Positions 8,092-23,529 of a stretch of DNA of 64,000 nt are shown here, one piece after another. Numbering within the stretch: position 1 is the first letter of the stretch; every line of letters begins with the position of its first letter. Where the stretch lies: the IMG/VR virus record IMGVR_UViG_3300047483_000428. One strand, given 5' to 3'. The notes below the pieces were generated by a model. The model was not told the origin of the DNA. It made no database searches and saw only the letters and a program-made list of their open reading frames with translations. The stretch is from a virus (lineage: Duplodnaviria > Heunggongvirae > Uroviricota > Caudoviricetes). The position numbers were made by a program, and so were the translations under genes.

Positions 8092-8168
8092 TGGTGCCCC
8101 CGGCAGGATTCGAACCCGCAACAGTCGGTTTCGAAGACCGATGCTCTATCCAGTTGAACTACAGAGGC
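8092..8168 (-). tRNA. tRNA-Arg (anticodon TCG)
   Basis: 77 nt cloverleaf: D-arm TAGTTCAACTGGATAGAGCA, anticodon arm TCGGT-CTTCGAA-ACCGA, T-arm GGGTTCGAATCC, 3' CCA encoded. Confidence 0.75.
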
Positions 8169-10177: not shown

Positions 10178-10252
10178 TGGTGCTGCGAAAGAGGATTGAA
10201 CTCTTGACCTCTTCATTACCAATGAAGTGCTCTACCACTGAGCTACCGCAGC
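10178..10252 (-). tRNA. tRNA-Thr (anticodon GGT)
   Basis: GCTGCGG-TA-GCTC-AGTGGTA-GAGC-A-CTTCA-TTGGTAA-TGAAG-...-AAGAG-TTCAATC-CTCTT-TCGCAGC-A-CCA. Confidence 0.7.
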
Positions 10253-12023: not shown

Positions 12024-12099
12024 TAGAATAATATGGTCCCCAAGGACGGAATCGAACCGCCGACACCATGCTCTTCAGGCAAGTGCTCTACCAACTGAG
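12024..12099 (-). tRNA. tRNA-Phe (anticodon GAA)
   Basis: CCCCAAG-TA-GCTC-AGTTGGTA-GAGC-A-CTTGC-CTGAAGA-GCATG-GTGTC-GGCGG-TTCGATT-CCGTC-CTTGGGG-A-CCA. Has a U28:U42 mismatch and G37. Confidence 0.6.
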
Positions 12100-12355
12100 C
12101 TACTTGGGGACAACCAGTTTTGAGACATGGCGGTCAACCGCTCTTTAACGACAACGGTGGTCGGAACACTTATACATCAGGTTCCTATGACATAACTTTA
12201 CATCGTTTAGCTTACAACGACTGGGAATACATGCTAACCCGCTGCTCCAAAATATTACTATCAGTGACACGAAAGGAGTTGAACCTTCATCTTTACTTTT
12301 TTGGAGTAACGCCTTATCCCTAGTTTTGGCCACGTGTATGTAGTAAAATAATCTA

Positions 12356-12430
12356 TGGTGCGGTCTAATGGATTTGAACCATTGACCTCTGTCGAGTCAG
12401 GACAGCGTTCTACCCCTGAACTAAGGCCGC
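12356..12430 (-). tRNA. tRNA-Val (anticodon GAC), tentative
   Basis: GCGGCCT-TA-GTTC-AGGGGTA-GAAC-G-CTGTC-CTGACTC-GACAG-...-TTCAAAT-...-CCA; position 37 is a pyrimidine. Confidence 0.5.
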
Positions 12431-13152
12431 ATATCTATTTTCAAATTTTCTAACATGGTTCCGTTGAAATCAGCAAACTCAACCTTTTTTGTTGACAAGT
12501 ATTTTTCTGCGACTAATTTAAGATGGTCATAGTTATCTACTATTGTCTTTTTACTTGGTGCTTTTAATTTAGATATATCAAATGGTGTTAGATTTTCTAT
12601 TGGTGTATTACACAGTTCCATATTGGCAAAATCAACAACAGGATCAAAAGTAAGATTTTCCATATATACGATTTCATTATACTGAATATTAAAATCGTTT
12701 CTGCATATATATCCCAAATCCCATAACTGATTATCAACATACCATATAATCATATCATCTGTTATTTCAACTTTATCGAAGTTATGATATTCAACAAATT
12801 CTTTTTTTATATTTGCGATAGCAAGACTCAATGCACTTTGAAAGACATCTTTTCTTAATATGACAATCGTATAATATTTTTTTTGGTAATATCGATCTAT
12901 GACCCCATAGTCTTTCAAATCCACAATTTGAGTAATATGCGTTTTCATTACTACGGGGTCATGTCGTTCAATGAAATTCAGCCGACTATTAAAAAGATTT
13001 GCTATTTCAGACGAAGATGTTATTTCTGGTGGTATTAGAAATGGTTCATTTACACAAACATAATTTTTGTTCAGACTTGTCATGTGATGACAAATCATTC
13101 GTTGCATATATGTCGAACCATTTCTTGGATTACTTATTATTTGAATATTCAT
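12421..13152 (-). CDS. sulfotransferase-like protein (paralog A of 61575..62330)
   Basis: N-terminal ISNPRNGSTY resembles a PAPS 5'-phosphosulfate-binding loop. The shared block RKDVFQSALSLAIA aligns with paralog B's RKNVFDTVMSLALA. Confidence 0.4.
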   Translation of the reverse strand: MNIQIISNPRNGSTYMQRMICHHMTSLNKNYVCVNEPFLIPPEITSSSEIANLFNSRLNFIERHDPVVMKTHITQIVDLKDYGVIDRYYQKKYYTIVILRKDVFQSALSLAIANIKKEFVEYHNFDKVEITDDMIIWYVDNQLWDLGYICRNDFNIQYNEIVYMENLTFDPVVDFANMELCNTPIENLTPFDISKLKAPSKKTIVDNYDHLKLVAEKYLSTKKVEFADFNGTMLENLKIDMRP

Positions 13153-13374
13153 TGTGTTATTCCTTTGAATAATATTTATTCAATAGTGTGCTGCTACGCC
13201 AAAGGAAAACAGAGCCAAAAATATCATAACGAGCGATTATGTTTCTGTTACTGTCCGCATTTTCCCGCCCAGCCTCTCCCTATACCACTTGTTTTCACAG
13301 CCCGATATAGTCTCTTTGCGTTCACGGTGCTTCGTTCCACTCTTTAAAGGATGTGCTGCCTCTAAGCCAACCTC

Positions 13375-14091
13375 CTACTGAACTTTCAAGTAATCATATT
13401 CTCCGCTTAGTAACTTTTCAACAAACGCAGGAACCATTTCTGTTGCAACCCCATCCATACTTTCTGTAAACATATACTTGTTTTCAGAAGGATGTAGATT
13501 GATTTCAACAGTATGTGCTCTTGCTTTTTTCTTTGCAGTCTTCACAAATCCAGCCGCAGGATAAACTGTTCCAGATGTTCCAATCGCAACAAAGATGTCA
13601 CAACGTCTAAGTGCATCATCAATCACTTCCATGTAGTATGGAAATTCACCGAACCAAACGATGTTTGGGCGTAATGCAGGATGATAGCAATCATCACAAA
13701 TATCGTGTGTTTGCATCACTTCATTTGCAGTTGTAATGTCTCCACATTTTCTACAAATAGATTCGTGCAAACTTCCATGCATATGCAATACGTTTTTTGA
13801 CCCTGCTTTTTCATGTAAGTCATCTACGTTTTGAGTAATCAAAGTAACATCAAAATTTGGATTATGCTGTAATGCTGCTAAAGCATAATGCGCTTTGTTT
13901 GGTCTTGCATCGGCAACTTCTTTACGTCTATGGTTATAGAAGTCTAATACAAGTTTTGGATTTTTATAGAAACCTTCTGGGGTTGCTACATCAGTTACAT
14001 CATATTCATTCCAACGTCCATCGGTATCACGAAATGTTTTGATTCCGCTTTCTGCGGAAATTCCCGCCCCTGTCAATATGCATATTTTCAT
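13375..14091 (-). CDS. Sir2-family NAD-dependent protein deacetylase
   Basis: GAGISAESGIKTFR, QNVDDLH, a conserved HG and a CxxC zinc pair. Confidence 0.8.
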   Translation of the reverse strand: MKICILTGAGISAESGIKTFRDTDGRWNEYDVTDVATPEGFYKNPKLVLDFYNHRRKEVADARPNKAHYALAALQHNPNFDVTLITQNVDDLHEKAGSKNVLHMHGSLHESICRKCGDITTANEVMQTHDICDDCYHPALRPNIVWFGEFPYYMEVIDDALRRCDIFVAIGTSGTVYPAAGFVKTAKKKARAHTVEINLHPSENKYMFTESMDGVATEMVPAFVEKLLSGEYDYLKVQ

Positions 14092-14109
14092 TTCGTGTCC
14101 TTATAAGTT

Positions 14110-14185
14110 TGGTGGTGCTGGTAGGAATCGAACCTACGACAACCTAGTTATGAGCCAGGCACTCTACCGACTGAGTTACAGCACC
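14110..14185 (-). tRNA. tRNA with CAT anticodon (Met/fMet/Ile2-type), copy 1
   Basis: GGTGCTG-TA-ACTC-AGTCGGTA-GAGT-G-CCTGG-CTCATAA-CTAGG-TTGTC-GTAGG-TTCGATT-CCTAC-CAGCACC-A-CCA. Confidence 0.75.
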
Positions 14186-14205
14186 GAAAATTCTAGCCAG
14201 AAGCA

Positions 14206-14278
14206 AAACTGTTACGGGATTCGAACCCGCCTCTCCCCCGACTCCGCAGGAGTATCCTTTCCTATAGACGAAACAGTC
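14206..14278 (-). tRNA. degenerate tRNA-like element (possible pseudogene)
   Basis: Acceptor GACTGTT/AACAGTT and T-arm GGCGGG-TTCGAAT-CCCGT are present, but no canonical anticodon arm and no CCA. Confidence 0.25.
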
Positions 14279-14353
14279 TACCTATCAACACCTCTACGAC
14301 GATAATTGAAGATAGTCTTCTAGCTAAGGTAGTCGCAGCTACCTATTCTATGT

Positions 14354-14430
14354 TGGTGGCGGGTGAGGGATTTGAACCCCCGATCTTCTGGTTATGAGCC
14401 AGACGAGATAGACCACTTCTCCAACCCGCA
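14354..14430 (-). tRNA. tRNA with CAT anticodon, copy 2 (position 1 unpaired with 72, initiator-like feature)
   Basis: TGCGGGT-TG-GAGA-AGTGGTCTA-TCTC-G-TCTGG-CTCATAA-CCAGA-AGATC-GGGGG-TTCAAAT-CCCTC-ACCCGCC-A-CCA. Confidence 0.7.
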
Positions 14431-14565
14431 TCAATTGGAGGTCCGTTAGCCGATATAGAGTGGAACCTATATATCCGACCTTGCCGCTTTCGCAGCAAAT
14501 ATTTCACATCATTTTCTCTAATGAGAAGAACAGAGAGGTATGACACGGACCAACATCTTACTGTA

Positions 14566-14655
14566 TGGCGGTGTATACAGGATTCGAACCTGTGGCAGTC
14601 TTTCAACTGCGATGGTTTAGCAAACCACTGGTTTCAGCCACTCACCCAATACACC
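14566..14655 (-). tRNA. tRNA-Ser (anticodon GCT), type II
   Basis: GGTGTAT...GTGGT-TTGCTAA-ACCAT plus an 18 nt variable arm CGCAGTTGAAAGACTGCC, then ACAGG-TTCGAAT-CCTGT-ATACACC-G-CCA. Confidence 0.75.
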
Positions 14656-14656
14656 A

Positions 14657-14851
14657 TTATGTTTTCAGTTGTAAGTTTTTCTCTTTTATGAAGTTAGCAA
14701 TATCGCTTGGCCTAACACGAACTTCCCAATCGTCAATTACATATCCGATTTCGCGTTTGTCAAATGCTCCAACATATCTAATTTTGACATGTGAACGTCC
14801 AACAGAATATTCAAATGTTTGACCATTTACTTCAATCTTACGATAACTCAT
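14657..14851 (-). CDS. hypothetical small protein embedded in tRNA island
   Basis: 64 aa with a strong AAGGAGA RBS 7 nt upstream of the ATG. Confidence 0.5.
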   Translation of the reverse strand: MSYRKIEVNGQTFEYSVGRSHVKIRYVGAFDKREIGYVIDDWEVRVRPSDIANFIKEKNLQLKT

Positions 14852-14894
14852 TTATTTCTCCTTACGGGTTGCTAGGCACAGTGCCTATGGAATA

Positions 14895-14969
14895 TGGCGA
14901 GAGAGGTAGGAATCGAACCCACGACACCGAGTTTTGGAGACTCGTGTTCTACCACTGAACTACACTCCC
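14895..14969 (-). tRNA. tRNA-Trp (anticodon CCA)
   Basis: GGGAGTG-TA-GTTC-AGTGGTA-GAAC-A-CGAGT-CTCCAAA-ACTCG-GTGTC-GTGGG-TTCGATT-CCTAC-CTCTCTC-G-CCA. Confidence 0.75.
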
Positions 14970-15067
14970 ATTTATAGTGGTATCAATCCCCTTACCCCGA
15001 TGATGCTATCTTTGGACAACAGTATCGCTACTGCTTTTCTATGATGGATAGATTGATTACATATTTT

Positions 15068-15143
15068 TGGTGAACGGAGTGGGAATCGAACCCACGACAA
15101 CAGAATTAAAAGTTCCGTGCTCTACCAACTGAGCTACCCGTCC
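15068..15143 (-). tRNA. tRNA-Lys (anticodon TTT)
   Basis: GGACGGG-TA-GCTC-AGTTGGTA-GAGC-A-CGGAA-CTTTTAA-TTCTG-...-GTGGG-TTCGATT-CCCAC-TCCGTTC-A-CCA. Confidence 0.75.
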
Positions 15144-15248
15144 GTAAACTTTACTGGTTCTCACGTCTTGAACCGAATGCTGTCTAGTATTGCGACTCCG
15201 ACTCCCCGCTAATTGCAGGATGGAAGTATCTAGATCAAACACTTATAT

Positions 15249-15325
15249 TGGCACTTCCGACAGGATTCGAACCTGTAACCTTTCGCTTCGTAGGCGAATG
15301 CTCTATCCAGTTGAGCTACGGAAGT
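15249..15325 (-). tRNA. tRNA-Arg (anticodon ACG)
   Basis: ACTTCCG-TA-GCTC-AACTGGATA-GAGC-A-TTCGC-CTACGAA-GCGAA-...-ACAGG-TTCGAAT-CCTGT-CGGAAGT-G-CCA. Confidence 0.75.
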
Positions 15326-15429
15326 ATAAACAGTCGGAGTTTCTTTTAACGTGCTGCCGAATCAGACACAGGTATTTTTGGTGAGTGTTTATCCATCGCA
15401 GGAGGCGCTTCCGCTAGTGGTGTACGGCC

Positions 15430-15470
15430 ACATCAGACCTTGGACATTATGTGGCCACATAATGTCTTGT
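15430..15470. other. stable hairpin in tRNA-island spacer
   Basis: Inverted repeat GGCCACAT...ATGTGGCC (8 bp arms) between tRNA genes; possible processing or termination signal. Confidence 0.3.
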
Positions 15471-15488
15471 CACTTCACACTCATAGTT

Positions 15489-15572
15489 TGGTGGGTGTCC
15501 TTGGAATCGAACCAAGCATAGGTTTCCCTGACGGAGTTACAGTCCGCTGCCTCACCTTGAGGCGGCACACCC
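15489..15572 (-). tRNA. tRNA-Tyr (anticodon GTA), type II, copy 1
   Basis: GGGTGTG...GCGGA-CTGTAAC-TCCGT plus a long variable arm, then CTTGG-TTCGATT-CCAAG-GACACCC-A-CCA. Confidence 0.6.
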
Positions 15573-15767
15573 AAATGTTATGGTGCTGGATTTTTTCGGC
15601 GTCAACACTATGAGCGAGGAAGATAATCCCTCATGGGACTCTATCGCTTATCAACTGCTGACGTTTTGACTTTACGTGGATTAGAATAAACCGCTTCCAC
15701 AACCAGCTTAGATGACCGACCTGTAATATGGTGACTTGACCATATCAGGGAGCATCGGTCGTAATAT

Positions 15768-15856
15768 TGGAGGACGTGGTGTGATTCGAACACACGGTAT
15801 AACTTTCGTTAGCCGGATTTGCAATCCGGTGCCTTGAACCGCTCGGCCACACGTCC
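15768..15856 (-). tRNA. type II (long variable arm, Leu/Ser-like D-arm) tRNA whose anticodon loop reads TTGCAAA (GCA, Cys-type)
   Basis: GGACGTG-TG-GCC-GAGCGGTTCAA-GGC-A-CCGGA-TTGCAAA-TCCGG plus a 17 nt variable arm, then GTGTG-TTCGAAT-CACAC-CACGTCC-T-CCA. Confidence 0.55.
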
Positions 15857-15913
15857 ATTTTTATCTCTTGCATTATGTATAACCTGATTCGCATCAAGAG
15901 TCAACAACTATTT

Positions 15914-16003
15914 TGGCGGATGGTGAGGGATTCGAACCCCCGCTACACTTTCATGTAGCCGCCCTTTCCAGGGGCGGATAATAAACCACTCTAACAACCA
16001 TCC
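15914..16003 (-). tRNA. tRNA-Ser (anticodon GGA), type II
   Basis: GGATGGT...CGCCC-CTGGAAA-GGGCG plus variable arm GCTACATGAAAGTGTAGC, then GGGGG-TTCGAAT-CCCTC-ACCATCC-G-CCA. Confidence 0.7.
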
Positions 16004-16019
16004 ATTGTTTATGGTATTT

Positions 16020-16099
16020 TGGTCCTGCGGGAAGGATTCGAACCTTGCTCTCTCTGATCCACAATCAGATGTGCTAACCGTTAACACTACTTCGCAGGA
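16020..16099 (-). tRNA. tRNA-His (anticodon GTG), tentative
   Basis: Anticodon arm TCTGA-TTGTGGA-TCAGA, T-loop TTCGAAT and a CCA end are clear. The D-arm is irregular and no G-1 is encoded. Confidence 0.5.
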
Positions 16100-16106
16100 T
16101 TATTTT

Positions 16107-16184
<78 letters not shown>

Positions 16185-16195
16185 ACATTTTAGTG

Positions 16196-16314
16196 TGGTG
16201 CGTATGGCTGGACTTGAACCAGCATGTCACCATGACTCATTCAACCACCGTTGAACTTATGGATTTGAACCACCTTACGTCCGTCGACGTGCGTCTACCA
16301 TTTCGCCACATACG
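16196..16314 (-). tRNA. interrupted tRNA-like gene (about 119 nt) with Leu-type 5' half and approx. 50 nt insert before T-arm
   Basis: 5' GCGTATG-TG-GCG-AAATGGTAGA-CGC-A has a D-arm identical to element 8827..8983. 3' GCTGG-TTCAAGT-CCAGC-CATACGC-A-CCA. The acceptor halves pair perfectly; the middle carries two small hairpins instead of an anticodon arm. Confidence 0.3.
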
Positions 16315-16322
16315 CAAATATT

Positions 16323-16397
16323 TGGTTGCCCCTACTGGATTTGAACCAGTGACCTATCCCTTATCAGGGGATTGCTCTACCACTGAGCTAAGAGGCA
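16323..16397 (-). tRNA. tRNA-Ile (anticodon GAT)
   Basis: TGCCTCT-TA-GCTC-AGTGGTA-GAGC-A-ATCCC-CTGATAA-GGGAT-AGGTC-ACTGG-TTCAAAT-CCAGT-AGGGGCA-A-CCA. Confidence 0.75.
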
Positions 16398-16504
16398 TCA
16401 TTATTTGGAAGATAGTATCAAGGGTCGCAAATTCCTTGTGTAGCCCACTTCAAAGCAAACTTAATTACCCAAGCTACTGCGATAGAATACTATCATCAAA
16501 ATAA

Positions 16505-16590
16505 TGGTGTGGGGGGCTGGATTCGAACCAGCGTTGCTTTTCAGCGCCTGATTTACAGTCAGGTGGTTTCAACCGCTCACCCACCCCCAC
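16505..16590 (-). tRNA. tRNA-Tyr (anticodon GTA), type II, copy 2
   Basis: GTGGGGG-TG-GGTG-...-CCTGA-CTGTAAA-TCAGG plus variable arm CGCTGAAAAGCAACG, then CTGG-TTCGAAT-CCAG-CCCCCAC-A-CCA. Confidence 0.65.
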
Positions 16591-17010
16591 AAGAACACAG
16601 TGACCCTAACCGTTCTAACCGCTGAACTACATCGCAGTTTGAAGCCGCAATGGAGGGATTTGAACCCCCGACCTGTGTAGTATGTGTATATTTTCGTAAT
16701 GAGTGCTCTATCTGGATTCGAACCCTCGGACAGCATCAGCCCTACACCTACCGATCTGCTGACCGGAAAATAGGAGATCATTACATAGCCCGCACAACCA
16801 CGAATCGAACGTGTTTTCTTGACAACTGTCTATATAGACCAACTACCAGGTAGCTACAACTGGCTGTTGTGCGATTGTTGATGAGGTTTACCATGAGTCA
16901 TTTTAACTCATCAACAATATTTCTGTTTTCAACTGTAACAACTGTTGGACTCGAACCAACCCCACCTTGTCCTGAAACTACTCGTAGTTATACTACTTTC
17001 GCCCAAGGTT
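16591..17010 (-). other. block of degenerate/non-canonical tRNA-like elements (at least 4 T-arm-like and several D-arm/acceptor-like segments)
   Basis: T-loop-like GGGTTCGAATCC, GGGGGTTCAAATCCC, CACGTTCGATTCGTG and TTGGTTCGAGTCCAA occur with fitting acceptor pairs (e.g. GCACAAC/GTTGTGC), but anticodon arms could not be folded by eye. This block may hold the tRNAs missing from the hand-parsed set (Ala, Asn, Asp, Gln, Glu, Gly, Pro). Confidence 0.25.
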
Positions 17011-17121
17011 TATGACACCCTTGCACCGTATTGTTACATGTGAAAACAGAAATTATTTCATTCTGTTTTTTCTAAATTGTCAAAGAGCAGTGAAGCATCG
17101 CTTCGTTTTCTTACATTGTCT

Positions 17122-17149
17122 TTATATACTGATTCGCTTATAAAGTCAA
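17122..17149 (-). promoter_or_regulatory. promoter-like motif copy at the head of the tRNA array
   Basis: Plus strand reads tttatatactgattcgcttataaagtcaa, oriented to transcribe into the tRNA block at lower coordinates. Confidence 0.45.
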
Positions 17150-17154
17150 CATCT

Positions 17155-17196
17155 TTTTTCAATAAAAAACCCTCCGAAGATTTTCATCTTGGAGGG
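17155..17196 (-). terminator. rho-independent terminator downstream of the LamG-like gene
   Basis: Minus-strand hairpin CCCTCCAAGATGAAAATCTTCGGAGGG followed by TTTTTTATTG. Confidence 0.6.
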
Positions 17197-17365
17197 TTCC
17201 TGTGTTCGTTAGAACTGTATGGATATGTAAGTTACATTCCCATACCAAGACCCTCGCAGCCGCTATACATAAAGCGACCACACCAAGTGCGGCGAATAAT
17301 CATCTTATGTGTAGAAGCGGTTTTCATTGAAAGTCTTAGTCCTTTGTTTGTTTCTATTCTTTATT

Positions 17366-17392
17366 TATAGCACTATCAGAGTGATTCGTCAA
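17366..17392 (-). promoter_or_regulatory. promoter-like motif, variant spacing (TTGACG-N17-TATAAA)
   Basis: Revcomp reads gcTTGACGaatcactctgatagtgcTATAAAtaa, sigma70-like with the CGAATCAC block immediately after the -35. Confidence 0.45.
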
Positions 17393-17436
17393 GCATTATC
17401 TTCTATTTTATTTATCTTTTTTACATTTTTTCTGTA

Positions 17437-18519
17437 TTATAGACCGTAACGTGTCTTATGAGCATTGAAGTTTTGAAGTAGTTCTGTTGCACTCAGTGCT
17501 CTGTTATAGAACCGTATTCCGCCTAACTTTCCATCTAACCAAGCAAAACTGTTATTGGTGGAACCAAACTGCAAAAACTCTGGACTATCAAAAAGGGCAG
17601 TTGTTGACAAATCACTTCTTGTGAATTTCGCAACTCCATTCCTGTAACCAGTAAGTGATGCCCCGCTTCTGACTACTGCAACATGATACCAAGTTCCAGT
17701 GACCATTGGTTCAGAGTTAGACCATAATCCATGATATAACCAGTTTGTGCCATCAAAACTATATCTGAATGTTGGGCGATTTACCGCGCCAAACGCATCT
17801 ATATATAAACCATAACTTCTGTTTGAGGACGCACCTTCTTTTTCAAAAATGGTTTGGTTATTCACAGTATGTGCATCAATATTTACCCATACTTCCCAAG
17901 TGAAGTCGTTTGCGCCAACATCCAAAATGTCAGCTTGTGTATCACAAATAGCAGTAGCAGTAACATCAAAATCTAACACTCCACCATTTGAACTCAAATA
18001 AGTTACATCAGTGAGCGTTCCGTTGTATGCATTTGGTGAAAGGTCGTTCAACACAGTTCCAGTGCCAGGATAACTGTTGCCATCGCCAGGTTCGTAGTAA
18101 AGCTGTAGGCCACGTGTAGTCACAATATCGGTAGTTTCAGAAATGACTTCATATGACGCTGTTATTTGTATATCATTGGCAATACTTGCAAAAGAAACAA
18201 TCGCATCAGATTCTTCAAGGTAAATGCCAATTTCTTTAGTCATCAAAGAAACAGAGGAATTTGCAGGAACAGACACAGTGCTAAAAATAGAGTATGTAAT
18301 GCCATTTCTTGAAATTTGAACTGTAACAAGAGCAGGATATAGTCTATCCACGTTAGTCGCTACTATTTGATTTACTTTTATTAGCTTACCAGAACCAGCC
18401 TCATTGAACAAAATGACTTTTGGTGTTAGTTGTAGAACGGAGGAAACGCTACTTTCTCCGTCTATATTTAGACTATTTGCTATATTTGGTGCAGTCATAT
18501 TATACCTCGTGATCAACAT
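17437..18519 (-). CDS. concanavalin-A-like lectin/glucanase (LamG-like) domain protein
   Basis: C-terminal 200 aa carry a jelly-roll signature (WYHVAVV..SG....YRNG, LDG.L..IR.YNRALS). The N-terminal 160 aa are a different Ser/Thr-rich beta region. Confidence 0.55.
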   Translation of the reverse strand: MLITRYNMTAPNIANSLNIDGESSVSSVLQLTPKVILFNEAGSGKLIKVNQIVATNVDRLYPALVTVQISRNGITYSIFSTVSVPANSSVSLMTKEIGIYLEESDAIVSFASIANDIQITASYEVISETTDIVTTRGLQLYYEPGDGNSYPGTGTVLNDLSPNAYNGTLTDVTYLSSNGGVLDFDVTATAICDTQADILDVGANDFTWEVWVNIDAHTVNNQTIFEKEGASSNRSYGLYIDAFGAVNRPTFRYSFDGTNWLYHGLWSNSEPMVTGTWYHVAVVRSGASLTGYRNGVAKFTRSDLSTTALFDSPEFLQFGSTNNSFAWLDGKLGGIRFYNRALSATELLQNFNAHKTRYGL

Positions 18520-18574
18520 GTATACTTGATTTGAAGTTTTTTGTCAAGAATTATATGCTGTTTTATTTATCTAT

Positions 18575-19702
18575 TTATATTACGATTACGCCAAGTGGCG
18601 GAAACCCATTGAACGCAACCGTTGAGTATGTAGTTGTGTATGCTCCACAGTTCTTGATAAAGATTCTATCACCAGACTTCAAGTCAGTTGGAAACTTTAC
18701 TTTGTTAGTTTCATACAAAACATCAGCACTATCACAGGTAGGACCAGCAAGAACACAGGACATTGTATCATTGCTACGGCAATCTGGTGTCACAAACTGA
18801 TACTTGATTGCTTCTTCTGCGGTTTCTGCAAGGCCACTGAACTTACCAATATCCAAGTAAACCCAACGAACTTCGTCACCTTCATTTTTAGTTGACACAA
18901 GTAGAACATTGGCAGAAATCATACCAACATTTCCAACCATACCACGGCCAGGTTCTGCCATGATATACTCAACAACGCCAAACTTATCCGAAATCATCTG
19001 TGTGAGTAGTTGGCAGTATGCCTCTGAATCGGTGATAGGAACGCCATAGAAGGCAGGAAATCCACCACCTATGTTGAGTAGCTTCATATCAAAGCCATTG
19101 CTTACAGCGTCTTTCCAGACCTCTGAGGCATATGTCAGAGTGTCATCCCACATTTCTGGATGACGAGTTTGCGACCCAACATGGAAGCTAATACCGATTG
19201 GTTTCAGCCCAACAGATTTAGCATACTTCATGAGAGGAATAGCTTTTGATTGTCCGCATCCAAACTTACGACTCAATGGCCATTCCGCTTGTGAGTTTGT
19301 AACTAATAGGCGAATGAATACTTCACTGTTCGGTGCGTATTTTGCTATCTTGTCTAGTTCTTCTTCTGCATCTGCTGCATAAAGTTTGATACCTTGTGCA
19401 TACGCATATTCAAGGTCTGCTGGACGCTTTACCGTGTTTCCAAAACTAATGTGTTCTGGTTTAGCGCCAGCATATAGACATATGCGTATTTCTTCTGCGC
19501 TTGCTGCGTCAAAACGGCATCCAAGTTTGACGAGTTTGTTTATGATTTCCTTTTGTGGATTTGCTTTCACGGCATAGTGAATATGGGCATTTCCAAGTCC
19601 AGATTTCAATTTTTTGTAGTTTTCTTCTACCTTCTCCACATCTAGAACGAGGGTTGGATAGTCGAAAACATTCGAGCGAATGTAATCTTCTAGTTTATCC
19701 AT
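18575..19702 (-). CDS. PLP-dependent decarboxylase, Orn/DAP/Arg decarboxylase family (fold-type III)
   Basis: Family-2 PLP attachment signature HYAVKANPQKEIINKLVKLG, the Gly-rich motif IGGGFP and a C-terminal beta-domain. 375 aa, similar in size to CANSDC/NspC or short ODC. Confidence 0.75.
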   Translation of the reverse strand: MDKLEDYIRSNVFDYPTLVLDVEKVEENYKKLKSGLGNAHIHYAVKANPQKEIINKLVKLGCRFDAASAEEIRICLYAGAKPEHISFGNTVKRPADLEYAYAQGIKLYAADAEEELDKIAKYAPNSEVFIRLLVTNSQAEWPLSRKFGCGQSKAIPLMKYAKSVGLKPIGISFHVGSQTRHPEMWDDTLTYASEVWKDAVSNGFDMKLLNIGGGFPAFYGVPITDSEAYCQLLTQMISDKFGVVEYIMAEPGRGMVGNVGMISANVLLVSTKNEGDEVRWVYLDIGKFSGLAETAEEAIKYQFVTPDCRSNDTMSCVLAGPTCDSADVLYETNKVKFPTDLKSGDRIFIKNCGAYTTTYSTVAFNGFPPLGVIVI

Positions 19703-19747
19703 AGTGTTGTGACCCTTTCGTAAAACAACACAGTTATTTATAAGATA

Positions 19748-19837
19748 TGGCGGAAAGTGTGGGATTCGAACCCACGAGAGGTTTCACCCCCTGCTCGTTT
19801 AGTAGACGAGTGCCATCGACCGCTCGGCCAACTTTCC
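19748..19837 (-). tRNA. type II tRNA with anticodon loop CTACTAA (reads as ACT; atypical)
   Basis: GGAAAGT-TG-GCC-GAGCGGTCGAT-GGC-A-CTCGT-CTACTAA-ACGAG plus a long variable arm, then GTGGG-TTCGAAT-CCCAC-ACTTTCC-G-CCA. Ser/Leu-type architecture. Confidence 0.5.
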
Positions 19838-19840
19838 TTT

Positions 19841-20551
19841 TTATTTTCGTATCACTACCGTATATGAACCAAGTTCCGCATCTGGGTATGATGTCAGCAT
19901 GGGAACAATTTCAACATTCTTATACTTATCAAAAAAACTTTTGTCATAGAATGTAAGTGGAGTAGTTTTGTATTTCTCAGACAATTGCTCAAGTGTTAGA
20001 TTTTGTCTGTTTGCTTGCTTTTCCTTGAAAAGATTCTCTGTTTCTTTATCTTTCACATCGGATATCACAACGCCATATTTTGAGCAACGTAGCATTTCTT
20101 GAGTGACGTAATCAGCATCATCATATGATAGATATTGAAAAACTGAATTTGATATGAACCAATCAACTTTATTATCAGTTATCGGTATTTTTTTATCGGA
20201 AACAAAAAAGTGATGTGCTTGCATAGGAAACAGTATCATGCATTGGTCTATAAGTTGTTTGCTTATATCAATTCCATATACATCATTTCCATATGTGTGG
20301 TGAAGGTAATGTAATAATGCAGCGTTTCCGCATCCAAACTCAGCTATTGACGAATTTGTTTCAACAAAATCCATCATGTATTCTACATACGATTTGAATG
20401 TGTTTTTGTCGCAATCAAAAATGGCCTTGTGCAATTCAAAAGATGAATCAAATACCGATTTGTCAGTTGATACTAGTATTTTGTTTGTTTCTAAAACCCA
20501 TGAAAGATTTGGATTGTTAAATATTTTATTCCATGTTTTTACTTCGGTCAT
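19841..20551 (-). CDS. class I SAM-dependent methyltransferase
   Basis: Motif I IAEFGCGNAALLHYL and motif II VYGIDIS. Confidence 0.6.
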   Translation of the reverse strand: MTEVKTWNKIFNNPNLSWVLETNKILVSTDKSVFDSSFELHKAIFDCDKNTFKSYVEYMMDFVETNSSIAEFGCGNAALLHYLHHTYGNDVYGIDISKQLIDQCMILFPMQAHHFFVSDKKIPITDNKVDWFISNSVFQYLSYDDADYVTQEMLRCSKYGVVISDVKDKETENLFKEKQANRQNLTLEQLSEKYKTTPLTFYDKSFFDKYKNVEIVPMLTSYPDAELGSYTVVIRK

Positions 20552-20777
20552 TCGGAATTTCTTTTCTTACTTTCCAATAAACCCAACTCTCCATACAATG
20601 GTGGCTATCGTTAAATACCAAGTTTATAAACCATACGATGTTTGGTTTGTTAGTTCGTTTCCAATGCCAATTTCTTGCACTAAAAGTTTGATTGCTTTCT
20701 CCACCAATCACTACATTGAAGAGAATACTAAATGCGGTGCCGCATCTTTTTATATAGTTTGTTAATACATTTCTCAT
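20526..20777 (-). CDS. hypothetical protein
   Basis: 83 aa, Trp-rich ORF upstream of the methyltransferase. Confidence 0.3.
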   Translation of the reverse strand: MRNVLTNYIKRCGTAFSILFNVVIGGESNQTFSARNWHWKRTNKPNIVWFINLVFNDSHHCMESWVYWKVRKEIPNDRSKNME

Positions 20778-20954
20778 AAATGTATTTATATAAAACCCCC
20801 AACCAGATGCTTATGCGCGGGAACACGACATTTTACGGTATACCAGCATCATTCTCTGTATCAGAGAGGAACAGATTTTAAAGATTGTTAAGGATAAGTC
20901 CCATCCACAGCCGCATGGGTTAACTTACGTGGCAAATCCAGAGGGTTTTATATT

Positions 20955-21575
20955 TCAAATTTTACCATTCAACTCGTTAAACAAACACAAAGCGTATTCA
21001 TCGTGAGCATCTTTATTTGGATGTGATCCATCCAATGCAGGAGGATATTTTAATCTAATACTATCAAAATCAGATTTCAAAAATTCAAAACTCATCCAAT
21101 TTCCAACACTTTTTGAGGTAATATTAGAAATAGATAAAAGTGCGTGAAAGTTATTTACATCTTTTGACCATAAATATCGGTGTATATGGTCCGCTCTTAA
21201 ATTCAAATCTATTAAACCATCATATTCAGAATATAAGTTTTCATAATACCATTCATACTCTGAATATCTTGGTAGTATAAAAACATCATCCGAGTTTTCT
21301 CTAAAATATGTTGTTCTTGTAATAAAAGACCAATTTACTATAACAATATCATCTTGATGATAACCAAAGTCAACTACAGTTTTCCATATTTTTTTATTAC
21401 TAGCACCAGGAATACTTTTGTTTACTACTTCTTGTATTCCTAGTTTTTCAGCGAGAGTATTTGGCCAACCCATCTTACTTGGATACGATGTTATATATGG
21501 ATATTCATTGGTATGACAATCCTCTAACGAGTGTCCATATGTGTAACTGCAACCAAAAACAACTAATCTACTCAT
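20955..21575 (-). CDS. SGNH/GDSL-like hydrolase (tentative)
   Basis: N-terminal block VVFGCSYTYG is block I-like, a GASN block follows, and the C-terminal DGSHPNKDAH fits the DxxH catalytic pair. Confidence 0.45.
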   Translation of the reverse strand: MSRLVVFGCSYTYGHSLEDCHTNEYPYITSYPSKMGWPNTLAEKLGIQEVVNKSIPGASNKKIWKTVVDFGYHQDDIVIVNWSFITRTTYFRENSDDVFILPRYSEYEWYYENLYSEYDGLIDLNLRADHIHRYLWSKDVNNFHALLSISNITSKSVGNWMSFEFLKSDFDSIRLKYPPALDGSHPNKDAHDEYALCLFNELNGKI

Positions 21576-21586
21576 TTTTTAACCTC

Positions 21587-21683
21587 TGGTGTTGGAGAGG
21601 GATTTGAACCCTGCTTTGAACAATTTGTTTCATCCGCCTGCCCGAATATATGAAACAACATCAGCACACCATGCCAGTCCAAC
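21587..21683 (-). tRNA. tRNA-like element with canonical T-arm/acceptor but a long central hairpin instead of D/anticodon arms
   Basis: 3' AGGG-TTCAAAT-CCCT-CTCCAAC-A-CCA and 5' GTTGGAC pair; the centre is a 9 bp hairpin TTGTTTCAT...ATGAAACAA. Confidence 0.25.
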
Positions 21684-21893
21684 ATAATAAATCGTATGCA
21701 TCTTTATCCCTTCTACCCAGTCCACTGTAGGTGCGCCGTAGCTGGCCACACAGCTTCAACCTAGTCCAGTCTTCAACACTCACGTGCTACGATACACGGC
21801 ATTACTCTGCTTCGGGCTTTTTTTGCGGTTGCTACATCGCTTCTCATCATATGGGTTACCGCCCATACTATCTGTTGCTACACAGAACGTCTA

Positions 21894-21978
21894 TGGTGCC
21901 CGTAGAGGGACTTGAACCCCCACTCCGTTAGGAACCTGATTTTGAGTCAGGCGCGTCTACCAATTTCACCATACGGGC
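21894..21978 (-). tRNA. tRNA-Leu (anticodon CAA), type II
   Basis: GCCCGTA-TG-GTG-AAATTGGTAGA-CGC-G-CCTGA-CTCAAAA-TCAGG plus variable arm TTCCTAACGGAGTG, then GGGGG-TTCAAGT-CCCTC-TACGGGC-A-CCA. Confidence 0.75.
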
Positions 21979-21982
21979 AAAT

Positions 21983-22198
21983 TTATAAATCTTTTGTATT
22001 ATCTATCTCTCTACCAAGAGAAATATTTTTTTGTGCTCTTACTTTGTTGTTTGGCCAAGTCCAACACTGTCCATCATCATCACCAAAACAAACCCACATC
22101 AAGTTATGTTCTGGTCCATAATCTATCAAAACATGCGCCAATGCTGGACCTCTTGGCGTATAAAGAGGTATCGGTGGATTTAGCTGTAACATATTCAT
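21983..22198 (-). CDS. hypothetical protein
   Basis: 71 aa ORF. Confidence 0.35.
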   Translation of the reverse strand: MNMLQLNPPIPLYTPRGPALAHVLIDYGPEHNLMWVCFGDDDGQCWTWPNNKVRAQKNISLGREIDNTKDL

Positions 22199-22220
22199 GT
22201 AAGTTCTCCCCTCACACTAT

Positions 22221-22847
22221 TTATGCTACTGACGCCTCTTTCACAACTTTTGCAACTACTTTATACAAACCAGGATTTACAACTAACGCTTTTGGCATCA
22301 ACTCATGACGAATAAAGTTACGCATATACTTTGTATCGCTGTTACTTTTATCTTCAATCCATTCAATGCTTTTTCGTTCACACCAATCAACAAACTCATA
22401 CTTACGGTTCATACGAAATGGACGAATAACATTCATGTTGCGATATGGAATAACTTTACCAAAACCGTTCAATGACGACCAAATCCAAGTTTCAGTGCAA
22501 TCATCCAAGTGATGACAAGTTACAACTGGCACATCCATACTATAGAAGATTTTGTATCGCTCGTTTCTCCAATGTTCTTCCTGAGACGTATTTTTGGGAG
22601 GGTTTTCATCAGAAATACATGTCTTGATGAGACGTTCACCAAATACAGAATCAAGAAACTTTTCTGCTTCTCTACTTGTTTCAGTTCCGTGATTTACAAA
22701 TAGGGGACGGACTGTATGATTGCGACTTAGGAAGTCAACAACTGCCATACTATCAACGCCGCCACTACAAGCGACAATCACTTCACGTGGGATTTTACCT
22801 TGGATTTTGATCATATTCGAAACAGTCTTTTCCTGTTTGGTGTTCAA
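22221..22847 (-). CDS. PP-loop ATP pyrophosphatase (TilS-like tRNA(Ile)-lysidine synthetase or QueC-like)
   Basis: SGGVDS PP-loop in VIVACSGGVDSMAVVDFL followed by FVNHG. Context of four CAT-anticodon tRNAs favours TilS-like. Confidence 0.6.
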   Translation of the reverse strand: MNTKQEKTVSNMIKIQGKIPREVIVACSGGVDSMAVVDFLSRNHTVRPLFVNHGTETSREAEKFLDSVFGERLIKTCISDENPPKNTSQEEHWRNERYKIFYSMDVPVVTCHHLDDCTETWIWSSLNGFGKVIPYRNMNVIRPFRMNRKYEFVDWCERKSIEWIEDKSNSDTKYMRNFIRHELMPKALVVNPGLYKVVAKVVKEASVA

Positions 22848-23046
22848 ATGTTAGAAGGCCGAGTCGTGGAGACTTCTTATTCGCACATACACCATAATCA
22901 AATCCAAGTTCCCCGTCAAGAGGCAAAAACCATTTACATCCACAACTACAGTCTGGGTAATCTTGATTGTCGGCCCATCGTTTGACTTCTCCACCATAAT
23001 CAGTGTAATCAGATGGAAGGACTTTTATAAACGACATATCAATCAT
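22795..23046 (-). CDS. hypothetical Cys-containing small protein
   Basis: 83 aa with a CSCGCKW motif. Confidence 0.35.
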   Translation of the reverse strand: MIDMSFIKVLPSDYTDYGGEVKRWADNQDYPDCSCGCKWFLPLDGELGFDYGVCANKKSPRLGLLTFEHQTGKDCFEYDQNPR

Positions 23047-23064
23047 ATTCAGACCTTTTTATTT

Positions 23065-23141
23065 TGGTAGTCCCCCTCGGACTTGAACCGAGATATCCGT
23101 TCTTATGAGGAACGCTCATTCACCAATTATGATAGAGGACC
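23065..23141 (-). tRNA. tRNA with CAT anticodon, copy 4
   Basis: GGTCCTC-TA-TCAT-AATTGGTGA-ATGA-G-CGTTC-CTCATAA-GAACG-GATAT-CTCGG-TTCAAGT-CCGAG-GGGGACT-A-CCA. Confidence 0.7.
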
Positions 23142-23255
23142 GTAATTCTGTTCGGTTTGTCGCAGACTCCGAAAAACTGCTTTCAGTAACCTAGACGCAG
23201 AGCATCATCCCTGTAGGACCATTGTCCCGCTACCGCCATCGCATTACCTTCTAAA

Positions 23256-23332
23256 TGGTGCCCCCGGTGGGATTCGAACCCACACTGTAGAGATTTTAAG
23301 TCTCCTGCCTCCTGCCTTTGGGCTACGAGGGC
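23256..23332 (-). tRNA. type I tRNA with anticodon TAA (Leu-type anticodon on a short-variable-arm body)
   Basis: GCCCTCG-TA-GCC-...-GGC-A-GGAGA-CTTAAAA-TCTCT-ACAGT-GTGGG-TTCGAAT-CCCAC-CGGGGGC-A-CCA. Confidence 0.55.
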
Positions 23333-23452
23333 ATTTTATTACTTGTTCCGACACCAGCCCCCAAACCCGCCGTGTCAGTGACTACTTCCATATCCCAAAG
23401 AGAACAGAAAGGAAAAGGTTCTCAACGGTATACTAAGTATCTTTCCTAATAT

Positions 23453-23529
23453 TGGCGATTCCGGCAGGACTCGAACCTGCAACCCACAGCTTAGAAGGCT
23501 GTTGCTCTATCCAGTTGAGCTACGGAACC
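23453..23529 (-). tRNA. tRNA-Arg (anticodon TCT)
   Basis: GGTTCCG-TA-GCTC-AACTGGATA-GAGC-A-ACAGC-CTTCTAA-GCTGT-GGGTT-GCAGG-TTCGAGT-CCTGC-CGGAATC-G-CCA. Confidence 0.75.

Follow-up and report, generated by a model that had tools for sequence, protein, structure and literature searches.

Clusters of tRNA genes in large phages have precedents in T4, T5 and KVP40, and the cluster of T4 also specifies two stable RNAs, species 1 and 2 (rnaC and rnaD), which are non-decoding, 100–160 nt long, equipped with acceptor-like stems and CCA ends, and presumably matured together with the tRNAs. In large and jumbo phages, the tRNA genes form a block on one strand amid small open reading frames (ORFs) and auxiliary genes, and a CCA enzyme and RNA ligases, both described as common in jumbo phages, are encoded elsewhere (PMC7824862). 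Phage genes for the lysidine synthase TilS have been noted since 2019, with their function reported as unknown (PMC6892783). Known irregular tRNAs include selC* tRNA-Cys, allo-tRNAs and, in the tRNA clusters of alpha-proteobacterial phages, tRNA-Ser and tRNA-His with 8/4 acceptor/T stems (Mukai et al. 2017, PMC5389517), and the evasion of tRNA-cutting defences by means of phage tRNAs is an established idea (PMC10264068, PMC11555353, PMC12445682, PMC13056530).

Here we describe a tRNA island in a 64,000-nt stretch of the virus record IMGVR_UViG_3300047483_000428 (hereafter the window; all coordinates refer to the whole of it). An initial annotation had placed about 25 tRNA genes at 12024–23529, four of them with CAT anticodons, together with embedded accessory genes and a PP-loop ATPase resembling TilS or QueC. 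Like the clusters of other large phages, the island is a one-strand tRNA block amid small ORFs and auxiliary genes, with a CCA enzyme and an RNA ligase encoded elsewhere. To that plan it adds a TilS cassette and several tRNAs of non-standard class, and a megablast search against 50,697 deposited phage genomes matched it only with isolated single tRNAs. Arrays of tRNA genes in large phages are already on record, as are phage tilS genes, CCA enzymes and RNA ligases. Less ordinary are the domain-less TilS, whose physical pairing with a CAU tRNA in a cassette for AGA, UUA and AUA is conserved, the class-swapped tRNAs, and the conserved tRNA-like RNAs. We consider it probable that the island supplies about 20 tRNAs for translation and that, within its core cassette, TilS makes the tRNA at 23065 an AUA-reading tRNA-Ile2.

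The window has 40.6% G+C and carries minus-strand genes throughout. It is assigned to a phage because a neighbouring gene matches a virion structural PHROG, because relatives of the PP-loop protein sit on IMG/VR contigs of up to 381 kb, and because the closest isolated phages are large myoviruses. One conserved protein of 369 aa is 33–35% identical to proteins of the Sinorhizobium phages phiN3 and phiM12 and of the Agrobacterium phage Atu_ph07. The source is a large, virulent, uncultivated phage distantly related to the large myoviruses of Sinorhizobium and Agrobacterium. The Joint Genome Institute contigs L232–L236, which carry the TilS homologue P0001 (91% identical to the window protein), are syntenic with the window at 80–95% nucleotide identity, sharing GMP reductase, CCA enzyme, TilS, decarboxylase and Sir2 genes through to a DNA methylase. 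Most island tRNAs are kept, within the same range of identity, in L232, the close relative used for comparison below.

The tRNA genes were called with ARAGORN in default, relaxed-threshold and intron modes and with Rfam at the gathering threshold (29 bits for RF00005) and in a permissive run. ARAGORN by default found 23 tRNAs in the window, all on the minus strand and 21 of them within 12034–23529, a span of 11.5 kb. Rfam at the gathering threshold returned 21 tRNA matches in the window, most with E values of 1e-9 to 6e-14: 17 of the 21 in-range ARAGORN genes, both genes outside the island, and two weak matches that ARAGORN had missed by default (12267–12337, 37.4 bits; 14206–14278, 31.0 bits). 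With both Rfam runs combined, 18 of the in-range ARAGORN genes matched RF00005 at 34.9–72.6 bits, the tRNA at 23065 (52.3 bits) being recovered only in the permissive run; the tRNA-Tyr at 15489 and the tRNA-Ser(GGA) at 15914 matched the tRNA-Sec model alone, below threshold, and the RNA at 21588 had no RF00005 match. Such a density of tRNAs is too high for chance, and the island is therefore real. It comprises 16 regular tRNAs, all with an encoded CCA end, four irregular tRNAs that still have a cloverleaf and a CCA end (Tyr 15489, Ser(GGA) 15914, His 16020 and 16107, which resembles the formylmethionine initiator tRNA, fMet), and seven tRNA-like RNAs that are unlikely to decode codons (12264, 14205, 16196, 16591, 16788, 16935 and 21588), an inventory that makes the earlier figure of about 25 fair. 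ARAGORN reproduced every anticodon that had been read by hand (Phe GAA, Val GAC, four CAT, Ser GCT, Trp, Lys, Arg ACG, two Tyr GTA, Ser GGA, His, Ile GAT, Leu CAA and Arg TCT), and ARAGORN and Rfam agreed that Arg(TCG) at 8092 and Thr(GGT) at 10178 lie outside the island. Unnamed until now were Cys(GCA) at 15768–15856, Ser(ACT) at 19748–19837 and Leu(TAA) at 23256–23332, and neither the reduction of TilS to its catalytic domain nor the "wrong" structural class of several tRNAs had been recognised.

The order tRNA-Arg(TCT), tRNA-Leu(TAA), one or two CAT tRNAs and tilS, which runs from 23529 to 22221 in the window, recurs in L001–L006 and L232–L235, and in L024 and L007 a CAT tRNA lies 50–750 nt from tilS; in the window, 23065 is 250 nt upstream of it. 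As judged by this synteny, the conserved core of the island consists of tRNA-Arg(UCU), tRNA-Leu(UAA), tRNA(CAU) and tilS. No tRNA-Ile(TAT) was found in the window or in 25 TilS loci, and other phage arrays have Arg(TCT)-Leu(TAA)-Ile(TAT)-Met(CAT) in the same slot. The slot thus belongs to a reader of AUA, which is either a UAU tRNA or a CAU tRNA together with TilS, and this logic is the strongest argument that 23065 is a tRNA-Ile2 and that the enzyme acts on it.

The CTCATAA loops reported for the four CAT tRNAs at 14110, 14354, 16107 and 23065 are exact. These tRNAs had been proposed to comprise an elongator tRNA-Met, one initiator-like copy and an Ile2 species; the elongator (14110) and the Ile2 candidate (23065) stand, and the initiator-like copies are two instead of one. 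The determinants of E. coli TilS are a CAU anticodon, A37, A38 and the acceptor pairs C4-G69 and C5-G68. The C4-G69 pair and A37, which had been singled out as the elements to inspect, are both present in 23065 (Table 1), which is likely a tRNA-Ile2. Of the initiator-like copies, 14354 (acceptor UGCGGGU/ACCCGCC) has a U1.C72 mismatch and 16107 a weak U1-A72 pair; both have A11:U24, and in place of the three consecutive G-C pairs (29-41, 30-40, 31-39) expected in an initiator anticodon stem each has two, together with U29-A41 or A29-U41. The overall plan of 14354 resembles that of E. coli tRNA-fMet, and the body of 16107 looks even closer to it in sequence. The two are accordingly called initiator-like: they appear to be of initiator type without every textbook feature.

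The cassette enzyme profiles as a TilS and not as a QueC. It scores 103.7 bits against TIGR02432, the TilS N-terminal equivalog-domain model (curated cut-off 93.6), its three PDB sequence matches are TilS in every case (1wy5, 1ni5 and 3a2k), and the motifs SGGxDS (SGGVDS in the window), HHLDD and W.ED.SN..Y.RN are retained in an alignment to 1wy5 and 1ni5. No QueC model appeared in the NCBIfam output, the only such indication being a 24-bit PHROG match over the PP-loop (residues 22–63), and inspection of the sequence by eye shows none of the CxxC Fe-S motifs that TtcA and TtuA typically carry. With its likely start at the ATG at 22814, the protein has 197 aa, the same as its closest homologue P0001; PF01171 is its one Pfam domain, and the full-length TilS model NF007942 yields 62.9 bits against a cut-off of 606. 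The solved cellular enzymes (E. coli MesJ, 1ni5; A. aeolicus, 1wy5; G. kaustophilus, 3a2k) have the N-terminal ATP-pyrophosphatase domain and the motifs in common with the phage protein, and they extend to 317–464 aa with one or two C-terminal domains, whereas the phage protein stops after the catalytic domain and is, by its length and domain content, that domain alone. The C-terminal domains that are absent from it (CTD1/CTD2) serve in TilS to grip the tRNA body and acceptor stem. Neither the 71-aa ORF directly downstream of tilS nor the 83-aa ORF between it and the CAT tRNA is accepted as a missing tRNA-binding subunit, both being conserved only in the closest relatives. The same short build is found in the Pseudomonas jumbo phages PA5oct and MIJ3 (203 aa, PP-loop only, 44% identity; PMC6892783); tilS of PA5oct lies away from any tRNA, whereas in the window and about a dozen related contigs the gene comes immediately after a CAT tRNA. 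Homologues number 1809 at E <= 1e-10, the best 120 of these all having 191–261 aa and PF01171 only, with many on contigs longer than 100 kb. The family, more than 1800 strong and with 47 columns invariant when 22 of its sequences are aligned, is evidently under selection.

Codon usage fits the earlier suggestion of codon support: counted on the phage side, ATA accounts for 23% of Ile codons and AGA for 23% of Arg codons, with AGT more frequent than AGC. In the proposed scheme, the island would be transcribed on the minus strand and would supply the infected cell with about 20 phage tRNAs, which would supplement host tRNAs or stand in for them during translation of the phage genes, with their preference for A/U-ending codons. 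The first three tRNAs of the cassette would read AGA, UUA and AUA. For the last of these, the adjacent 197-aa TilS would convert C34 of 23065 to lysidine and so switch the tRNA from Met and AUG to Ile and AUA, with one elongator tRNA-Met and two initiator-type tRNAs as the remaining CAT species. At least seven tRNA-like or structured RNAs would probably be freed by the RNase P cleavage and 3'-end processing that also yield the tRNAs, the CCA-adding/repair enzyme and the nick-sealing ligase would be available to mature and maintain the island RNAs, and the accessory genes of the island appear to be movable. Because tilS sits beside its presumptive substrate in a conserved, operon-like cassette, one small enzyme and one tRNA would suffice to ask whether a TilS can work without a domain that binds the tRNA body, and how it spares tRNA-Met.

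Several observations weigh against this scheme. The pairs 4-69 and 5-68 vary among the TilS-adjacent CAT tRNAs of relatives, and G1.U72 had to be rejected as a signature of TilS substrates, as it occurs in 61 of 474 unique tRNAs with many anticodons. The CUCAUAA loop is common to 23065 and the phage Met and fMet tRNAs, and the enzyme has no C-terminal domains with which to discriminate between them. Its AlphaFold model is weak (mean predicted local distance difference test score 62, second half below 50) and supports a generic PP-loop fold only; a Foldseek search with it, led by the generic PP-loop enzymes TtuA, LarE and GMP synthase at a root mean square deviation of about 15 Å, was set aside as a means of subfamily assignment. 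TTA accounts for just 10% of phage Leu codons. Finally, tRNAs for Ala, Asn, Asp, Gln, Glu, Gly and Pro were found nowhere in the 64-kb window, and the suggestion that they hide in 16591–17010 fails, for that block consists of a permuted element and two tRNA-like RNAs, all three of them lacking a regular anticodon arm and a CCA end.

Two side observations concern the cassette. In L115, L118, L124, L128, L132, L134, L135 and L147, a 91–94-nt tRNA-Ile(UAU) with a long variable arm, G1.U72 and A73 occupies the position of the CAT tRNA and TilS. Separately, the decarboxylase encoded 2.5 kb downstream of tilS has LysA as its best match; LysA is the diaminopimelate decarboxylase that makes lysine, the co-substrate of TilS, and the proximity may be a coincidence.

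Table 1 Features of the window, grouped by type
Feature	Position	Strand	Evidence and remarks
tRNA-Arg(TCG), outside main block	8092..8168	-	ARAGORN; Rfam 61.8 bits
tRNA-Thr(GGT), outside main block	10178..10252	-	ARAGORN; Rfam 71.7 bits
tRNA-Phe(GAA)	12034..12109	-	ARAGORN; Rfam 65.7 bits
tRNA-Val(GAC)	12356..12430	-	ARAGORN; Rfam 60.1 bits
Elongator tRNA-Met(CAT): G1-C72, G4-C69, regular D-arm	14110..14185	-	ARAGORN; Rfam 72.6 bits
Initiator-like tRNA(CAT)	14354..14430	-	ARAGORN; Rfam 59.1 bits
tRNA-Ser(GCT)	14566..14655	-	ARAGORN; Rfam 57.2 bits
tRNA-Trp(CCA)	14895..14969	-	ARAGORN; Rfam 63.3 bits
tRNA-Lys(TTT)	15068..15143	-	ARAGORN; Rfam 68 bits
tRNA-Arg(ACG)	15249..15325	-	ARAGORN; Rfam 69.6 bits
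Irregular tRNA-Tyr(GTA), odd D-arm, CCA end	15489..15572	-	ARAGORN; tRNA-Sec-like Rfam 33.7 bits only; conserved in L232, L012, L016
tRNA-Cys(GCA), 89 nt, U73, 7/5 acceptor/T stems, extended variable arm (4-bp stem, GAAA loop)	15768..15856	-	ARAGORN; Rfam 59.7 bits
Irregular tRNA-Ser(GGA), 6-bp anticodon stem	15914..16003	-	ARAGORN; Rfam tRNA-Sec-like 33.5 bits; missing in L232
tRNA-His(GTG): A73, no G-1, 4-bp T-stem	16020..16098	-	ARAGORN; Rfam 34.9 bits (16025-16096); same type in L002 (19134-19209), L232
Second initiator-like tRNA(CAT), one extra base before D-stem	16107..16184	-	ARAGORN; Rfam 41.9 bits (16111-16181); identical in L232
tRNA-Ile(GAT)	16323..16397	-	ARAGORN; Rfam 72.6 bits
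tRNA-Tyr(GTA), regular class II	16505..16590	-	ARAGORN; Rfam 63.1 bits
tRNA-Ser(ACT), class II, G73, A34 in loop CUACUAA	19748..19837	-	ARAGORN; Rfam 54.7 bits
tRNA-Leu(CAA), class II	21894..21978	-	ARAGORN; Rfam 56.7 bits
Candidate tRNA-Ile2 (CAT, read LAU): G1.U72, C4-G69, C5-G68, A37, A38, A73, T-loop UUCAAGU	23065..23141	-	ARAGORN; Rfam 52.3 bits; tilS adjacency conserved
Class-I tRNA, 77 nt, UAA (Leu) anticodon, A73	23256..23332	-	ARAGORN; Rfam 58.5 bits
tRNA-Arg(TCT), first gene of conserved cassette	23453..23529	-	ARAGORN; Rfam 68.8 bits
CCA-ending tRNA-like RNA, 157 nt: Leu-type D-arm, acceptor stem, T-arm, 77 extra nt in anticodon loop	8827..8983	-	Rfam 36 bits; ARAGORN intron mode; 5' part conserved in L232
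tRNA-like RNA without CCA; anticodon loop CCAAAAA with C33	12264..12339	-	Rfam 37.4 bits; ARAGORN at relaxed threshold only
tRNA-like RNA without CCA, irregular anticodon arm	14205..14279	-	Rfam 31.0 bits; ARAGORN at relaxed threshold only
Structured RNA between two tRNAs, 135 nt	14431..14565	-	Fold z-score -2.9; orthologues L232 13420-13554, L002 17157-17292
CCA-ending tRNA-like RNA, 120 nt: Leu-type D-arm, three extra hairpins, one T-arm-like	16196..16315	-	ARAGORN intron mode; fold -40.2 kcal/mol, z -1.8; absent from L232
Permuted tRNA-like element: variable loop, T-arm, 7-bp acceptor hairpin, D-arm, degenerate GUC anticodon arm	16591..16690	-	Rfam YrlA 30.4 bits
tRNA-like RNA: perfect 7-bp acceptor stem, D-arm, T-arm, 11-nt aberrant anticodon loop, no CCA	16788..16874	-	ARAGORN at 80% threshold only; fold
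tRNA-like RNA: 9-bp terminal stem, T-arm, no CCA	16935..17038	-	ARAGORN relaxed + intron; fold z -2.1; strongly diverged or replaced in L232
Promoter-like hexamers TTGACG/TATAAA, 31-codon ORF (17232-17327), strong intrinsic terminator (~17163-17197)	17150..17400	-	Sequence; upstream of tRNA-like block
CCA-ending tRNA-like RNA, ~97 nt: acceptor stem, D-like hairpin, 6+5-bp extended arm with GGCAGG loop, T-arm	21587..21684	-	ARAGORN "Tyr(ata)"
Calcineurin-like metallophosphoesterase, 210 aa; possible RNA-end healing enzyme	8175..8807	-	Pfam Metallophos E 4.7e-10; PHROG 246 NinI-like phosphatase; weak match to Pnkp phosphatase segment
S-adenosylmethionine (SAM) methyltransferase beside tRNA-Thr	10263..10904	-	Pfam methyltransferase + FtsJ; best, sub-threshold NCBIfam CmoA 57.9 bits vs cut-off 193
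Embedded protein, 243 aa	12421..13152	-	No Pfam/NCBIfam/PHROG match; DUF7448 gene in its place in L232
Sir2/CobB-family NAD-dependent deacylase	13375..14091	-	Pfam SIR2 E 2.3e-46; NCBIfam 280 bits vs cut-off 318; syntenic in L232
Concanavalin/LamG-domain protein, 360 aa	17437..18519	-	Pfam Laminin_G_3 E 1.2e-21; absent from L232
Pyridoxal phosphate (PLP)-dependent Orn/diaminopimelate (DAP)/Arg decarboxylase	18575..19702	-	Pfam; NCBIfam lysA 158.7 bits vs cut-off 297.9; syntenic in L232
SAM-dependent methyltransferase, 236 aa	19841..20551	-	Pfam Methyltransf_11, Methyltransf_25
Protein of 206 aa, borderline DUF6071	20955..21575	-	Pfam 26.3 bits vs cut-off 27
ORF directly downstream of tilS, 71 aa	21983..22198	-	Conserved in closest relatives only
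Mini-TilS, 197-aa lysidine-synthase catalytic (PP-loop) domain	22221..22814	-	PF01171 only; TIGR02432; PDB matches
Cys-rich ORF between CAT tRNA and tilS, 83 aa	22795..23046	-	Closest relatives only
Multifunctional CCA-adding/repair enzyme (nucleotidyltransferase + HD)	26723..27973	-	Pfam PolyA_pol, PolyA_pol_RNAbd, HD; NF008137 480 bits vs cut-off 451
Rv2179c-like 3'-5' exoribonuclease	35478..36017	-	Pfam E 3.1e-29
ATP-dependent RNA ligase, Deinococcus DRB0094 (DraRnl) type	48542..49552	-	TIGR02306 200 bits vs cut-off 151.15

Between and beside the tRNAs lie RNAs that are tRNA-like in varying degree; they show that tRNA callers on default settings report some genes too many and miss others in islands of this kind. 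The 97-, 120- and 157-nt RNAs, whose anticodon regions are enlarged or hold several hairpins, are reminiscent of T4 species 1 and 2 and differ in keeping recognisable D-arms and T-arms. Group I and archaeal-type introns were rejected as explanations for the 77-nt and 24-nt insertions, on grounds of size and domain of life. The most unusual arrangement is that of 16591, in which the acceptor hairpin is closed by a 9-nt loop and the degenerate GUC arm abuts tRNA-Tyr. It aligns end to end with the YrlA family (RF02553) at 30.4 bits against a gathering score of 69, with the Ro-binding helix deleted, and its L232 orthologue (11360–11460) reaches 27.8 bits. The order of T-arm, closed acceptor-like hairpin and D-arm is that of YrlA, and the RNA ends at the would-be anticodon stem (PMC4201824); YrlA of M. 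smegmatis has a 7-bp acceptor stem, is cleaved by RNase P and has CCA added (PMC4201824). Unlike in a YrlA system, the score is below threshold, the Ro-binding helix is missing, and there is no Rsr/TROVE gene among the scanned ORFs of the window, so that a genuine YrlA/Rsr system was rejected; these and the other protein-family scans (Pfam, NCBIfam and PHROG) covered about 45 of the larger ORFs. We describe 16591 as an element with an apparent YrlA-type tRNA-like topology or, alternatively, as two tRNA gene remnants, and rate its being a functional tRNA mimic as possible, at slightly less than an even call.

The strongest rival explanation for these non-canonical elements (12264, 14205, 16196, 16591, 16788, 16935, 21588 and 8827), and one that comes close to balancing a functional view of them, is that they are remnants of tRNA genes, decaying or recombined, which duplication, deletion and gene conversion in a rapidly changing array have left behind and which have no function of their own. 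Whole units have been gained or lost relative to L232, which lacks Ser(GGA) and the 16196 RNA and carries one additional tRNA-like unit; 16935 can hardly be aligned with the corresponding L232 sequence. The permuted order of 16591, complementary acceptor strands included, would result from a tandem duplication and two subsequent deletions, and Chen et al. have reported that dimeric tRNAs yield false YrlA matches (PMC4201824). The fold z-scores of the non-canonical elements are mostly unremarkable. Decay is harder to reconcile with the pattern of substitutions, which relative to L232 fall in loops or are compensatory. Of the ten differences in 16591, four make up two compensatory pairs (D-stem and T-stem), one replaces a G.U of the hairpin by A-U, and the others lie in loops or single strands; the D-stems of 16788 and 12264 show compensatory changes from G-C to A-U and from C-G to U-A, respectively, with the anticodon arm of 16788 diverged, and the 21588 RNA, which has orthologues in L002 and L232, shows compensatory acceptor and T-stem pairs (against L002). 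The T-arm of 16591 is, however, identical to those of both fMet-like tRNAs, which suggests gene conversion and makes this a possible cause of its compensatory changes. Conservation of 12264 and 14205 (97–99% identity to L232 amid diverging spacers) also speaks against decay, as does the encoded CCA that three of the non-canonical elements keep in common with all genuine tRNAs of the island.

The 135-nt RNA at 14431–14565, which folds into several hairpins, is a separate case. Seven covarying pairs were found across three phages, no Rfam family matched, and blastn against isolated phages gave no match; it is a candidate for a new phage non-coding RNA. Exact-pattern scans for this RNA, the 97-nt RNA and the permuted element yielded either no match or only the contig known before. 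Upstream of the tRNA-like block, about 220 nt (about 17150–17370) have no substitutions relative to L232 amid neighbouring sequence that differs by about 10%, for which a leader or regulatory unit and a small RNA are both conceivable. Weak leader-type Rfam matches at 17150–17400 were attributed to the terminator, and the promoter and terminator scan gave counts equal to the shuffled expectation.

Among the decoding-competent tRNAs, several depart from the structural class of their isotype. The long-arm tRNA-Cys shares its long arm, U73 and GCA anticodon with the set of Mukai et al., in which an irregular Ser beside a His with A73 and no G-1 also has its parallel; it is unlike selC* tRNA-Cys and allo-tRNAs, which have 8/4 or 9/3 stems (PMC5389517), in its 7/5 stems and 5-bp anticodon stem. 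Seven aligned lineages, with 7/5 stems in all aligned relatives, gave 13 covarying pairs, and the variable arm has a covarying 2–4-bp stem under a GNRA loop. The long-arm type is common in phage tRNA arrays: an exact-pattern scan found it in 41 IMG/VR contigs, with 23 distinct long-arm against five short-arm sequences. The same pattern occurs, as a single chromosomal copy, in 81 GTDB species genomes, nearly all of Phycisphaerales or other Planctomycetota. Viral and chromosomal loci taken together, the record comprises L002, L003, L005, L010, L016, L020, L111–L150 and L151–L230. Blastn against isolated phages gave no match, and the literature searched for a tRNA-Cys that combines 7/5 stems with a long variable arm offered the 8/4 selC* tRNA-Cys alone. 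The short-armed UAA tRNA belongs to a class-I family with UAA or CAA anticodons, A73 and a short variable loop that is also present in L003–L006 (for example L003 9745–9821 and 11469–11545), in several phages alongside a normal class-II tRNA-Leu. Together, the long-arm tRNA-Cys and the short-armed UAA tRNA are natural experiments in tRNA identity, raising the questions of which synthetase charges them and whether their shape protects them from tRNA-cutting defences.

The Ser(ACU) species is conserved in three lineages, with the same anticodon in L001/L002 (12180–12269) and L232 (9333–9422). Its anticodon arm, CUCGU CUACUAA ACGAG, resembles that of E. coli tRNA-Arg(ACG), the TadA substrate. As a side observation, deamination of A34 would permit misreading of AGA. 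Most His tRNAs of related arrays have A73, often with G1.U72, and Mukai et al. (PMC5389517) describe His tRNAs with A73 and without G-1 as alpha-proteobacterial in style. Attempts to fold Ser(GGA) and His of the window as 8/4 species were abandoned, as they could not be made to pair. The hints as to the host conflict: the A73 of tRNA-His and the Sinorhizobium and Agrobacterium phages point to alpha-proteobacteria, and the tRNA-Cys type points to Phycisphaerales.

The initial annotation had read the island and its enzymes as a repertoire for evading host anticodon-nuclease or tRNA-depletion defences or repairing their effects. As a reading of the island this is a plausible hypothesis; as its main purpose we find it doubtful. 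Under such an explanation, phage tRNAs would replace host tRNAs cut or depleted by PrrC/RloC, PARIS, retron-Eco7 PtuAB, VapC, OLD or Schlafen types, their altered shapes would make them poor substrates, and the CCA enzyme, phosphoesterases and ligase would mend ends. Isotypes that are classic nuclease targets are duplicated or present (two Tyr, two fMet-like, Lys, three Arg and His), and structural class swaps affect Cys, Leu and Ser(ACU). The CCA-adding enzyme, with its HD domain, and the RNA ligase both scored above curated NCBIfam cut-offs, in keeping with their earlier identification, and two metallophosphoesterases (from the Pfam scans) and a 3'-5' exoribonuclease are also encoded. Against this, the scanned ORFs yielded neither a polynucleotide kinase nor an Rnl1 or RtcB, the only trace being one ORF that weakly matches the phosphatase segment of Pnkp, and the ligase is of the DraRnl type, which seals nicks, and not the T4 Rnl1 type, which rejoins anticodon loops. 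The Lys, Tyr and Arg tRNAs have canonical anticodon loops. Replacement of tRNAs against tRNases is established in other phages (PMC10264068, PMC11555353, PMC12445682, PMC13056530; survey PMC7824862), and defence and codon supplementation can both hold.

A more far-reaching and, in our estimate, unlikely version is that the phage clade keeps a partly private translation set, with deliberate class swaps, self-contained AUA decoding, CCA-ending mimics co-expressed as decoys or cofactors, and escape from host tRNases that read tRNA shape. Cys would have gained a variable-arm hairpin, the UAA/CAA "Leu" would have lost its long arm, and Ser would carry A34; the catalytic-only TilS would need no acceptor-stem reading since its substrate is encoded alongside, and one mimic would have a permuted YrlA-like topology. 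If this were true, the tRNA-Cys with 7/5 stems and a long variable arm would be a natural, previously unremarked class common to phages and Phycisphaerales. The weakest alternative, that the PP-loop protein is no lysidine synthase for a phage tRNA and 23065 is a further tRNA-Met, with the enzyme acting on host tRNAs, catalysing another PP-loop reaction or being a domain remnant, can draw on the absent C-terminal domains, the tRNA-distant genes of PA5oct and MIJ3, the ranking of the fold search and the presence in some related arrays of a G1.U72 CAT tRNA alongside Ile(UAU), and is nevertheless very improbable in view of the TilS-specific profile and PDB matches, the selection on the family, the conserved linkage to a CAT tRNA and the lack of CxxC motifs.

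With the reading of the island as a translational supply and AUA-decoding unit thus preferred, its embedded accessory genes, whose presence was confirmed, remain to be described (Table 1). A metagenome scan with the Sir2 protein found relatives only about 55% identical, consistent with cellular CobB genes, and a viral-contig search with the LamG-domain protein gave no useful matches. CmoA, the best match of the methyltransferase beside tRNA-Thr, is an enzyme of the tRNA cmo5U34 pathway. Turnover of the island is fast: Ser(GGA), the 120-nt RNA, and the LamG, DUF6071 and methyltransferase genes (15914–16003, 16196–16315, 17437–18519 and 19841–21575) are missing in L232, where one extra tRNA-like unit and other ORFs are found instead. 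Farther away, the window encodes a twitch-domain radical SAM protein (3392–4522), a GMP reductase (32093–33265) that exceeds its curated cut-off, a GreA/GreB-like factor (34668–35216), an SbmA/BacA-family transporter (53467–54531) and a ClpP protease (57526–58161).

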